Source: an uncultured Chloroflexia bacterium (GTDB taxonomy: Bacteria; Chloroflexota; Limnocylindria; Limnocylindrales; CSP1-4). From it: a stretch of 64,000 nt of DNA. This document shows, piece after piece, positions 47,143-48,435 of this stretch; position 1 is the stretch's first letter, and each line of letters starts with the position of its first letter. Made by a program: the position numbers and the translations under genes. Under the pieces are notes generated by a model. It saw only the letters and a program-made list of their open reading frames with translations, had not been told where the DNA came from and made no database searches. The stretch lies in NCBI GenBank assembly GCA_963833225.1, contig CAWHXD010000019.1, forward strand, positions 885,759 to 949,758, in the 5' to 3' direction.

Positions 47143-47673
47143 ATGGCAGGGATGATCAGTCGGCGGTGGTGGCTCACCGCGTTTGCGGCGCTCATGCTCA
47201 CGGTGATTGCGGCGGGCACGGCCGTTGCGTACTCGGGCGAGGTCGCCGCGAGCGTCAGCCTCAGCCGGGCAAGCGGGACGCTCAAGTGCGGCCAGAACAT
47301 CACGGTCTCGGCCCTTGTCCAGGACAAGGACGGCAAGCCCATCGAGGGCCAGCCGGTCGCCTGGTCCTGGATCTCGCGCGTGAGCAAGTCGGACGTGATC
47401 AAGAAGACCTCGAGCACGACCAACGCGAGTGGGATCGCCCACACGACGGTCAACCTCGCGTGCGTCCCCGGCAGCCGCAGGCTTGGCGCGACGGCCGATG
47501 GGATCCGCGGACCGATCACCCTCAACGTGACCGCCGCCGGTCTCCCGCGCACGTCCACCGCGTTGACCGGTGCCCCGCTCTCGACGGACCCGATGGTCGG
47601 CACGTTGCTGGCGCTGCTGGCGCTCATGGTCGGCGGCGGGCTGGTCTTGCGCGGAGCCCTGACCAGGCGCTAG
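47143..47673 (+). CDS. Secreted Ig-like (Big_1-like) protein with LPRTS sorting-like signal
   Basis: Signal peptide; [14 protein letters not shown]...TTNASG; LPRTST followed by a TM helix and terminal RR. Confidence 0.75.
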
Positions 47674-47736
47674 CGAGCTGCCCGCACCCACTCCTCGTGC
47701 GCGCCGGTCCGGCGCGGGTTCGGCTAGCCTGATCTC

Positions 47737-48435
47737 ATGACCGGCTCCAATCAGCGTTCCGGTGGTGAGCGCTCGCGCCTGGTCGCCGGTCGCGGCCGCG
47801 TGCTCGCGATCGCCGCGGGCGTCGTCCTCATCCTCGCGGCGTCGGTCGCCCTTGCCTTCGTCCTGGGTGGCGGCCTGGAGGGCGCATCGACCCCGACAGC
47901 GTCCCCTCGGGCTGCGGTTGTCACGGCCGAGCCCGGCCAGACCAGCGCATCGACGGCGTCGCCGGCCGCCACGCTCGGAACCGGATCAGCCAGCCCAACG
48001 GCCGGACCGGCCTCGACCGCGACGCCCGAGTCGACACCGACCGCCGGCGTTCGCGCCAAGCGGATCCACATCGACCGGTTGGGGATCGACCTCGCGATCG
48101 TTGAGGGTGACGGCATCGACGCCCCGATCGGCAAGGCGGCCCACTTCCCCGGGTCCGGGTGGCCGGGTGGCGGCACCAACATCTACATCTACGGTCACGC
48201 CCAGGACGGGATGTTCATCACGCTCTGGGATGCGCGCAAGGGCGACACCGTCGTGCTCGACCTCATCGATGGCACGCATCGAACCTATGTCGTGACCAAG
48301 GTGCTGCCGAAGGTCCCGTGGGACGCGGTCGAGTATCTCGACCCCACCCCGACGGAACAGCTCACGCTCCAGACTTCCACGTCCTACTACGCCACGGCGC
48401 CGCGGTTCGTCGTCATCGCCGTCCCGCAGTCGTGA
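47737..48435 (+). CDS. Sortase-family protein with Ser at the catalytic Cys position
   Basis: N-terminal TM, I-x-RLGID, GSGWPGGGTNIYIYGH, LTLQTS...RFVV. Confidence 0.85.
   Translation: MTGSNQRSGGERSRLVAGRGRVLAIAAGVVLILAASVALAFVLGGGLEGASTPTASPRAAVVTAEPGQTSASTASPAATLGTGSASPTAGPASTATPESTPTAGVRAKRIHIDRLGIDLAIVEGDGIDAPIGKAAHFPGSGWPGGGTNIYIYGHAQDGMFITLWDARKGDTVVLDLIDGTHRTYVVTKVLPKVPWDAVEYLDPTPTEQLTLQTSTSYYATAPRFVVIAVPQS

Follow-up and report, generated by a model that had tools for sequence, protein, structure and literature searches.

The cassette and its products

The window (the whole stretch of 64,000 nucleotides analysed here, from an uncultured, soil-type Chloroflexia bacterium of the Limnocylindria) contains a conserved cassette of three genes, which encode a Big_1 protein ending in LPxT[S/D]T, a transmembrane (TM) helix and RR, then a sortase, then a DUF4012 protein, and which heads a polysaccharide locus. 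The features are the following:

46196..~47100: HAD/NagD-like gene directly upstream of the substrate gene, split over frames
47143..47673, + strand: presumed substrate gene, 176 aa; the secreted product has a signal peptide at its N-terminus, a single Big_1 Ig-like domain and a sorting signal at its C-terminus
47542..47559, + strand: codons of the sorting motif L134-P135-R136-T137-S138-T139 (sequence)
47737..48435, + strand: sortase-fold gene, 232 aa, no Cys, Pfam PF04203
48196..48198, + strand: His154 (CAC) of IYIYGHA, counterpart of the sortase catalytic His (sequence, alignment)
48376..48378, + strand: Ser214 (TCC), where TLxTC has its catalytic Cys (reading of the sequence, structure-guided alignment)
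48403..48405, + strand: Arg223 (CGG) of APRF (APRFVV), counterpart of the conserved sortase Arg (sequence, alignment)
48432..50492, + strand: DUF4012 membrane protein, 686 aa, Pfam DUF4012 at 109 bits
50608..52749, + strand: fusion of a Wzz chain-length determinant and a P-loop (BY-kinase-like) domain, Pfam Wzz, GNVR, AAA_31 and ParA

Of 64 loci, 57 have a Big_1 homologue upstream and 59 a DUF4012 homologue, in each case on the strand of the sortase gene. The ORF 50608..52749, the last ~200 residues of which are apparently out of frame, opens the following polysaccharide locus; its homologue lies downstream in 23 loci, with any hit in 26/64. A preliminary description of this DNA had called the sortase ORF and its neighbours free of frameshifts. 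This holds for the sortase gene, the substrate gene and the DUF4012 gene, all intact, but not for the HAD/NagD-like gene upstream, in which positions 1-57 of the Hydrolase_6 profile fall in one ORF and positions 60-100 in another.

The product of ORF 47737..48435 matches Pfam PF04203 (Sortase) over residues 110-230 (63.5 bits, cut-off 26.6). It begins with a membrane helix (residues 19-44), continues with a Pro/Ser/Thr/Ala-rich linker of low confidence (~45-103) and ends with a catalytic domain (104-232), for which the AF2 model has a pLDDT of 81-98. When this model was compared with the PDB by Foldseek, the top 50 matches were sortases throughout (E 6e-9 and above). The domain and the eight-stranded beta-barrel fold (Pfam, AF2, Foldseek) place the protein in the PF04203 sortase superfamily, which we take to be MEROPS C60. 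Placement in a named sortase class (A-F, GN) was dropped: none of the NCBIfam class models (NF033745-NF033748, TIGR03784) reaches its cut-off with the window protein, the scores in bits against the cut-offs being 30.6/160 for class E (the best), 27.1/165 for D, 19.6/160 for C, 17.7/166 for F and 18.2/158 for GN.

The presumed substrate carries its Big_1 domain at 38.1 bits (cut-off 34.9). The preliminary description had rightly seen that this adjacent gene ends in LPRTST, a TM helix and RR: the C-terminus consists of LPRTST, a 10-residue linker, a hydrophobic stretch and RGALTRR. A cognate tripartite signal is thus present, with a motif that departs from LPXTG at P1' and P2'. Conservation of the motif's L, P and T is 95% or more among 54 partners, higher than in any other column of the final 150 residues, and the remainder of the protein drifts. 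An NCBIfam scan of the second sortase paralogue of the same genome and of eight of its proteins with PPxTD/APATD tails found no sorting-domain family; on one of the proteins scanned, LPXTG_anchor stayed below threshold (14.5 bits, cut-off 15.9).

The DUF4012 gene starts with a GTG which overlaps the stop of the sortase gene (GTGA). In its product, an N-terminal TM helix and a helical stalk are followed by an LCP-like core (residues ~259-473, encoded by 49206..49850) and then, towards the C-terminus, by beta-sandwich domains; the AF2 model has a pLDDT of 87.6. With VIA-align (wide), at least 10 entries of LCP (LytR-CpsA-Psr) glycopolymer ligases (3pe5, 5v8c, 2xxp, 3okz, 6uex, 3owq, 4obm, 9gn3, 6uf6, 3mej) match residues 251-473 at Z 8.4-11.0, which exceeds the stated noise of Z 7-8 only modestly, with an rmsd of 3.9-4.7 over 163-186 aligned residues. 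R264, R276 and R417, within this core, are near-invariant. The Foldseek matches of the full-length model are beta-sandwiches only (OST1/ribophorin, M1 aminopeptidase N-domains), no LCP entry being found among the top 50, and the Pfam LCP model does not match the protein, which is hit by DUF4012 only. Four canonical LCP genes lie elsewhere in the genome.

A serine at the position of the catalytic cysteine

Textbooks present sortases as cysteine transpeptidases, and the enzymes serve both as targets for antivirulence drugs and as standard tools of protein ligation. To our knowledge, the catalytic Cys is present in every studied sortase, and a thioester intermediate is assumed in all mechanistic work on these enzymes. 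The preliminary description had claimed that the TLxTC motif of the window protein reads TLQTS, with the His (YGH) and the Arg (PRFVV) retained. We find the same: the codons around residue 214 of the ORF read CTC ACG CTC CAG ACT TCC ACG (L-T-L-Q-T-S-T), with TCC at 48376-48378, and the two other residues are H154 and R223. In the alignment of the family profile with solved sortases, S214 coincides with the catalytic Cys in both 4d70 (TIVTCTN) and 6bwe (TLITCTPY...HR), and R223 with the Arg of each. The catalytic Cys in TLxTC, by which members of the superfamily are recognised, is therefore missing here, and the His and Arg are in place.

A trivial explanation would be a sequencing or assembly error, TGC to TCC, in an ordinary Cys sortase, which the preliminary description had listed among its own readings. 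One base separates the Cys and Ser codons, and the assembly is not free of errors, with at least one frame break in the nearby HAD gene. Against this, Ser occupies the nucleophile position in 104 of the best 120 homologues and in 53 of 63 independent species-level genome loci covering the site, the remainder in both sets having Cys in an otherwise identical motif. The codon variety that the preliminary description had proposed to look for among homologues is also found: over the 53 loci, Ser is written TCG (28), TCC (23), TCA (1) and TCT (1), and from TCG no Cys codon can be reached in fewer than two steps. The diverged second paralogue in the same genome likewise reads LQTS. A check of the reads at 48377 had been proposed as well; it succeeded in part, as among four public runs compared a single contig of 151 nucleotides (run X8) is identical to the window over 48306-48456, but this agreement is weak, and the contig possibly shares its source with the window assembly. 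A contig of another run (X6) stops at 48374. The share of sampled window words present in any one public run was at most 0.10, and no RNA run was listed among those containing such words. Hence, given the four synonymous codons and the counts of Ser in loci and homologues, we ruled out the base error, the chance of which is practically nil.

The surroundings of the substituted residue can be followed in the family alignment. The column of His154 has H in 149/150 members with Ser (Ser-type) and in 39/40 members with Cys (Cys-type); among the 150 Ser-type members, that of Arg223 has R 143 times and K 7 times, and among the Cys-type ones it has R in all 40; T213, Q212 and E207 are found in 150/150 Ser-type members. 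As judged from these columns, the remaining active site is equally conserved in both types. The catalytic domain is entirely free of Cys in 144/150 members of the Ser-type group, and Ala, Gly or Thr are never present in the nucleophile column among 150 family members. In the same alignment, no residue tracks the switch between Cys and Ser, the sole associated column being that of residue 140, where S or T is loosely preferred, and no acidic residue which could complete a Ser-His-Asp triad arises together with Ser. A Ser nucleophile is much weaker than a Cys one, and replacement of Cys184 in SrtA of S. aureus is reported to abolish activity. The absence of any co-varying residue means that a weaker Ser nucleophile would have to act here with no visible compensation.

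Exchange of serine and cysteine within one cassette

Ser is conserved in most of a sortase family of the Limnocylindria (Chloroflexota), and the forms with Ser and with Cys are intermingled in the tree: a single Ser clade is rejected by the AU test (p = 2.4e-5). The broad tree has 8-9 changes between Ser and Cys, at least 4-6 of them forced by well supported branches, and the within-family tree has 11, at least 2 of them forced; as these trees are built from ~130 columns and many of their forks are weakly placed, the number of switches is uncertain. The two residues nevertheless appear, from these phylogenies, to interchange repeatedly within an orthologous cassette. The Cys-type orthologues in the Limnocylindria (loci L039, L043, L051 and L030, representative P0123) have the same EQLTLQT-x-TSY...PRF context, the same His and Arg and the gene order of the window (Big_1-LPxT[S/T]x partner, sortase, DUF4012); they differ in having TGC or TGT (Cys) in the place of TCC (Ser), a difference that is followed by no other column apart from the loose preference at residue 140.

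Ser-type genes are the only sortase-fold genes (E <= 0.01) in three of six related genomes checked, namely that of the window, which is 86% complete, and two others (G002, G003). These three genomes thus seem to have no back-up Cys sortase. The peptidoglycan machinery of the window's genome includes 6 PBP matches. Of the three cassette genes, the sortase is the best preserved: its catalytic domain has a mean identity of 73% to the window, compared with 59% for DUF4012 and 44% for Big_1, and it ranks first in 35/35 loci. A decaying enzyme does not behave in this way.

The preliminary description had also suggested that a Ser-nucleophile sortase goes with a co-varied motif. The dedicated partner is well borne out: at loci with enough upstream DNA, an LPxT[S/D]T partner is present beside 45/50 Ser-type and 9/10 Cys-type sortases. 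The co-variation is not, and we dropped it. Beside Ser-type sortases the motifs are LPNTST (17), LPRTST (8), LPRTDT (8), LPSTST (5), LPGTST (4), LPRTSA (2) and LPITST (1); beside Cys-type ones they are LPNTST (3), LPNTTT (2), LPDTST, LPPTSS and LPPTTA. LPNTST being the commonest beside both types, LPxTST is a trait of the family and not an adaptation to Ser.

A possible serine sortase and its relation to known systems

On balance, and with little to spare, we favour a functional sortase dedicated to the neighbouring protein, in which Ser214 would replace Cys as the acyl-accepting nucleophile. The membrane-anchored sortase would face outward. Sec export would leave the Ig-like protein held by its C-terminal TM helix, after which the sortase would bind LPRTST. 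Ser214, activated by His154, would attack the carbonyl of Thr137, the tetrahedral intermediate being stabilised by Arg223, to give an oxy-ester acyl-enzyme instead of the usual thioester; by analogy only, the scissile bond would lie between T and S. The acyl-enzyme would then be resolved by an amine, most likely, again by analogy, that of a peptidoglycan precursor, since the genome has PBPs, and the Ig-like protein would end up covalently anchored. The DUF4012 protein may attach the glycan of the locus to this Ig-like protein or close beside it, as can be imagined from the GspA-LcpA-SrtA set of Actinomyces oris.

The wider picture is more tentative and may well prove wrong. The sortase fold would naturally support Ser-His-Arg acyl transfer, Cys and Ser would have been toggled several times in one cassette, and the Ser-sortase and LCP-like DUF4012 protein of the Limnocylindria would together produce an Ig-like surface protein that is anchored covalently and possibly bears a glycan. 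If true, this would be an undescribed pathway of protein-glycan anchoring, and protein ligation could draw from it "serine sortases" that are insensitive to oxidation.

The replacement of Cys inactivates the sortases studied, and no compensating residue stands alongside Ser here. The Ser form could hence be a catalytically dead pseudo-sortase which still binds LPxTST, while the substrate stays anchored by its own TM helix; it could, for example, hold a membrane-tethered Ig-like protein for its LCP-like DUF4012 neighbour. The full TM helix and basic tail of the substrate could serve as a permanent anchor, and a role in binding would likewise conserve the groove and the LPxT motif. A pure binder, however, has no need of the catalytic His and Arg, which are invariant. 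It would not explain either why Ser is fixed through four synonymous codons and never gives way to Ala, Gly or Thr, or why the sortase domain is the most constrained part of the cassette, and the movement back and forth between Ser and Cys would imply that catalysis had been lost and regained several times. Because there is strong purifying selection on the whole active site, because L, P and T of the partner are invariant and because some genomes have no Cys sortase, we consider such a scaffold unlikely.

The evidence of function which speaks for a Ser-nucleophile sortase is shared by a Ser-dependent processing protease, which would cut LPxTST between T and S, let water resolve the ester and so free the Ig-like protein, or its glycoconjugate, from the membrane. 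General enzymology teaches that oxy-esters undergo aminolysis less readily than thioesters do, and the long conserved P' segment (TST-L/A-P) and pre-TM linker are unlike classical LPXTG signals. The Cys-type orthologues, with the same cassette and motif, suggest on the contrary one shared reaction, and sortases are transpeptidases; PBPs, which are serine enzymes, carry out transpeptidation, with which Ser is therefore compatible. We regard the protease as rather improbable.

Other protease clans use either Ser or Cys, and the sortase family may also work with serine. A large conserved group with Ser would show either that the sortase fold runs on an oxy-ester intermediate or that a class of annotated "sortases" is non-catalytic, and either outcome alters the annotation of such genes in Chloroflexota. 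As there are matched Ser and Cys orthologues which share the LPNTST substrate, the case is directly testable. DUF4012 is a widespread domain of unknown function, for which its link to the sortase offers a concrete hypothesis.

No description of a natural Ser-type sortase was found in the full-text literature available outside subscription. The C184S SrtA in PMC5578623 merely serves as a Cys-less background, irrelevant to natural Ser sortases, as is PMC13278184. SrtA of Streptococcus pyogenes accepts Ser or Ala at P1', according to PMC10763551 and PMC9520033, and PDB 7s4o is this enzyme bound to an LPATS peptide. This recognition of LPXT-S means that a P1' residue other than Gly does not by itself demand a new mechanism. 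The S. pyogenes protein is, however, a Cys enzyme with a housekeeping role and many substrates, whereas the enzyme of the window belongs to a one-substrate cassette.

With the solved sortases of classes D, E and C (C. perfringens SrtD 4d70, S. coelicolor SrtE1 5cuw, T. fusca SrtE 9iv0, C. diphtheriae SrtA 6bwe/5k9a), the window protein has in common the beta-barrel fold (Foldseek E 6e-9 to 5e-8), the GH and TLxT-x...R motifs and the N-terminal membrane anchor. Those are cysteine transpeptidases with LPXTG/LAXTG substrates, while the window protein has Ser and a substrate with LPxT[S/D]T. Finally, the three-gene set can be likened to GspA-LcpA-SrtA of A. oris, in which, according to PMC6381275, a sortase substrate, its sortase and a phosphotransferase of the LCP type are brought together on one surface protein. 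In the window, the DUF4012 core resembles A. oris LcpA (5v8c) with a Z of 9.8 and an rmsd of 4.2 over 171 aligned residues (VIA-align), and the genes adjoin a polysaccharide locus. The putative counterpart in the window differs from the A. oris pathway in that its DUF4012 protein is not matched by the Pfam LCP model, canonical LCP genes lie elsewhere in the genome and its sortase has Ser.

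Serine at the nucleophile position

The preliminary description had read the TLxTC motif of a sortase gene as TLQTS, with the catalytic His and Arg retained, and had proposed a Ser nucleophile with a co-varied substrate motif, a scaffold or a base error. The features concerned are the following.

47143..47673, + strand: Big_1 partner gene, 176-aa product, directly upstream of the sortase gene
47737..48435, + strand: sortase-fold gene, an ORF with a 232-aa product
48196-48198, + strand: CAC codon, read from the DNA, of His154, the GH-motif His in IYIYGHA
48432, + strand: GTG start of the DUF4012 gene, overlapping the sortase stop (GTGA)

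The motif was correctly read: the DNA is CTC ACG CTC CAG ACT TCC ACG, with the TCC of Ser214 at 48376-48378. Pfam places a Sortase domain at residues 110-230 (63.5 bits for a cut-off of 26.6). When the family profile is aligned with solved sortases, the counterparts of Ser214 are the catalytic cysteines in C. perfringens SrtD (4d70, TIVTCTN) and C. diphtheriae SrtA (6bwe, TLITCTPY...HR), and Arg223 falls on the conserved Arg of both. The His and the Arg are thus indeed retained, and the active site is otherwise intact; the whole protein contains no cysteine. Its AlphaFold2 model, computed with 118 homologues as input, has a membrane helix (residues 19-44), then a disordered linker of Pro, Ser, Thr and Ala, and a catalytic domain that is modelled with confidence (pLDDT 81-98). 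The top PDB matches to this model are sortases only, of classes A, C, D and E (E from 6e-9). None of the NCBIfam sortase class models is reached, the best being class E with 30.6 bits for a cut-off of 160.

At this site Ser is present in 104 and Cys in 16 of the 120 best database homologues, in the common context ...EQLTLQT-x-TSY...PRF. We scanned species-representative genomes and obtained 64 related loci, of which 63 cover the nucleophile site (L056 ends before it). All but one are titled as Chloroflexota, Chloroflexia or Limnocylindria MAGs; the exception, L018, is a 3-kb contig binned as Isosphaeraceae (a Planctomycetota MAG), which probably reflects mis-binning rather than transfer. Ser is found in 53 of the 63 loci (codons TCG 28, TCC 23, TCA 1, TCT 1) and Cys in 10 (TGC 9, TGT 1); in one Ser locus, L059, the frame breaks directly after the motif. 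Since four synonymous Ser codons are used, about half of them being two steps from any Cys codon, Ser has been under long-term selection. Hence the serine is real and selected, and the conserved TLQTS and codon variety sought among homologues exclude a TGC to TCC base error, to which we attach practically no probability. As for the reads at 48377, an exact match to 48306-48456 comes from a 151-nt contig of a single public run; this run shared only a small number of words with the stretch and is possibly the source sample itself, so that the agreement adds little.

Distribution of serine and cysteine types

A HMMER search run exhaustively over 1.84 billion cluster representatives yielded 1593 matches at E <= 0.001. 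In the best 149 of these, aligned to the query, the nucleophile column holds Ser in 52 and Cys in 76, the remainder being fragments or misaligned; distinct Ser groups among the same 149 are LQTSTSY (the window's family), LQTSTGPNxxDPRF, LQTSTG...LPKF and LQTSQG... The Ser/Cys label requires 9 changes on a tree of 116 full catalytic domains, and well supported branches force at least 6 of these. When the column of the nucleophile is removed together with three rows that are long or doubtful (P0223, P0243 and P0255), the resulting 113-row tree requires 8 changes, at least 4 of them forced. The best tree uniting all 41 Ser rows is rejected by the AU test (delta lnL 150, p = 2.4e-5). Within the family, a tree of 190 non-identical catalytic domains (150 Ser-type and 40 Cys-type) requires 11 changes, only 2 of which are forced because most forks are unresolved at 130 columns. 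A single origin of Ser is rejected on these trees, the direction and the number of the switches being uncertain.

A Pfam search of the organism's own genome (3.89 Mb, 86% complete) found two sortase genes, the window gene and a diverged paralogue. This genome also contains ORFs with sorting-signal-like ends.

L002 (own-genome locus) 1174..1977, contig C6, ~67.97-68.78 kb, strand not given: second sortase-fold paralogue, 267 aa, 28% identical to the window's sortase, Pfam 23.6 bits (sub-threshold)
Window 12856..13743, - strand, and own-genome loci L080-L086: ORFs with PPxTD/APATD-type ends, sorting-signal-like C-terminus

The paralogue has LQTS at the aligned nucleophile position (ELWLQTSEGPKGTPGKTQ) and a Lys aligned with Arg223. 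Orthologues with the motif LWLQTS or LMLQTS occur in four of the five related genomes searched, and a gene with a CorA-like C-terminus lies near the paralogue in the own genome and in 4/5 orthologous loci. Some genomes are without any Cys sortase: in the same sortase search at E <= 0.01, the related genomes G002 and G003 have Ser-type genes only, G001 and G004 have one extra Cys-type gene each, and G005 has its main Ser gene and one weak, unclassified match. At least eight own-genome ORFs end in [T/A]PPxTD[A/S/T] or APATD[T/A] followed by a linker, a hydrophobic or TM segment and a basic tail; NCBIfam recognizes none of these C-termini, apart from one sub-threshold LPXTG_anchor match. The proteins could be further substrates of one or other of the two Ser-type sortases.

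The cassette and its polysaccharide locus

The Big_1 partner has a signal peptide and a Big_1 Ig-like domain (Pfam, 38.1 bits), and its tail consists of LPRTST, a linker, a hydrophobic segment and RGALTRR. A same-strand upstream Big_1 homologue is present in 57 of the 64 loci and a same-strand DUF4012 homologue in 59; a Wzz-like gene is matched in 26, in downstream position in 23. In 45 of the 50 Ser-type loci and 9 of the 10 Cys-type loci with at least 1.5 kb of upstream DNA, the sortase is preceded by a protein whose end has LPxT-xx and, after a short linker, a hydrophobic stretch with a basic tail (one of the nine being a doubtful motif call). Cys-type orthologues occupy the same cassette. 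The motifs are LPNTST (17), LPRTST (8), LPRTDT (8), LPSTST (5), LPGTST (4), LPRTSA (2) and LPITST (1) beside Ser-type sortases, and LPNTST (3), LPNTTT (2), LPDTST, LPPTSS and LPPTTA beside Cys-type ones. As LPNTST and its like accompany both types, the non-Gly P1' is a trait of the whole family, and the proposed co-variation with the nucleophile is not borne out. Over the last 150 residues of 54 partners, only four columns are at least 95% conserved, three of them being the motif's L, P and T. The Big_1 neighbour is the only ORF of the own genome with an LPxT-TM-basic ending. This LPxT[S/D]T partner is dedicated to the sortase and co-conserved with it.

The ORF and its neighbours had been called frameshift-free. 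This holds for the two flanking genes, but not for the HAD/NagD-like gene upstream of the cassette (46196..~47100, + strand), which is split between two frames (Hydrolase_6 profile 1-57 in the ORF from 46196, 60-100 in that from 46425); either the gene is a pseudogene or the assembly has an indel here. The GTG overlapping the sortase stop suggests that the sortase and DUF4012 genes are translationally coupled. In two other loci, L009 and L023 (a chromosome-titled record), the DUF4012 orthologue has one in-frame stop and otherwise matches at full length. The DUF4012 gene is followed by a Wzz/P-loop kinase-like gene, by glycosyltransferases of family GT4, by a fragment of a MurJ/Wzx-like flippase and by an FkbM methyltransferase, which makes this a surface-polysaccharide locus. 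The Wzz ORF (50608..52749, + strand) continues for ~200 Arg/Ser/Cys-rich residues, apparently out of frame, past its last domain; in the next GT fragment (53006..53530) the Glyco_trans_1_4 profile is represented by its C-terminal part alone (positions 48-141 of 142), and the MurJ fragment (57977..58654) aligns to no more than the first 193 of the 451 positions in its profile. These three cases suggest further frame breaks. Two GT4 genes, 55934..56884 (+) and 60358..61299 (-), are inverted and 89% identical over 289 residues, by which they are a recent inverted duplication within the locus.

For the 686-aa DUF4012 protein we computed a model with 33 orthologues of the related loci as input; its mean pLDDT is 87.6. 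Foldseek, given the whole model, returned only beta-sandwich look-alikes, to the C-terminal domains. With an aligner independent of Foldseek, residues 251-473 match at least 10 LCP-family entries, including A. oris LcpA (5v8c), S. pneumoniae Cps2A (2xxp), S. aureus LcpA (6uex), B. subtilis TagU (6uf6) and MsrR (9gn3); the match is moderate (Z 8.4-11.0 for an aligner noise of 7-8, rmsd 3.9-4.7 A, 163-186 residues aligned). The core of the model is likely to have an LCP-like fold.

Active-site constraint and proposed activity

In the 190-row family alignment, H154 is kept in 149 of 150 Ser-type and 39 of 40 Cys-type domains, residue 223 is R or K in every Ser-type and R in every Cys-type domain, and T213, Q212 and E207 are kept in all members of both types. 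D125, D170, W142, N148, Y150 and Y152 are as conserved in Ser-type as in Cys-type domains. This alignment gives no sign of relaxed constraint in the Ser type, nor of a compensating residue such as an extra acid; beyond the nucleophile no column tracks the switch, bar residue 140, where Ser or Thr is loosely preferred. Compared with the window's own products, the sortase catalytic domain is on average 73% identical, DUF4012 59% and the Big_1 protein 44%. Of the 64 loci, 35 have each of the three products covered over at least 70%; the catalytic domain ranks first in every one of these, and is by this measure the most conserved cassette product.

The reading that we favour, by a little over an even chance, is that Ser214 would serve as the nucleophile, His154 would act as general base and Arg223 would stabilize the intermediate; the enzyme would cleave after Thr137 of LPRTST and pass the Ig-like protein on to an amine of the envelope, and the LCP-like DUF4012 neighbour may add the glycan of the locus. 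A peptidoglycan acceptor exists, as the own genome has four canonical LCP genes and six PBP matches. The main weakness of a Ser nucleophile is its chemistry: Ser replaces Cys poorly in the sortases studied, and no compensating change is visible. A pseudo-sortase which only binds the partner we consider unlikely, at about one chance in five. Slightly less probable still is a processing protease which hydrolyses the partner at its co-conserved motif instead of transferring it.

We found no description of natural Ser-type sortases in the full-text literature searched, a corpus that does not extend to subscription journals. The window protein is homologous to sortases and has a sortase-like gene context; it lacks the defining Cys and falls outside all named classes. 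The nearest described system to its cassette is GspA-LcpA-SrtA of A. oris, where a sortase-anchored protein is glycosylated by an LCP enzyme (PMC6381275).
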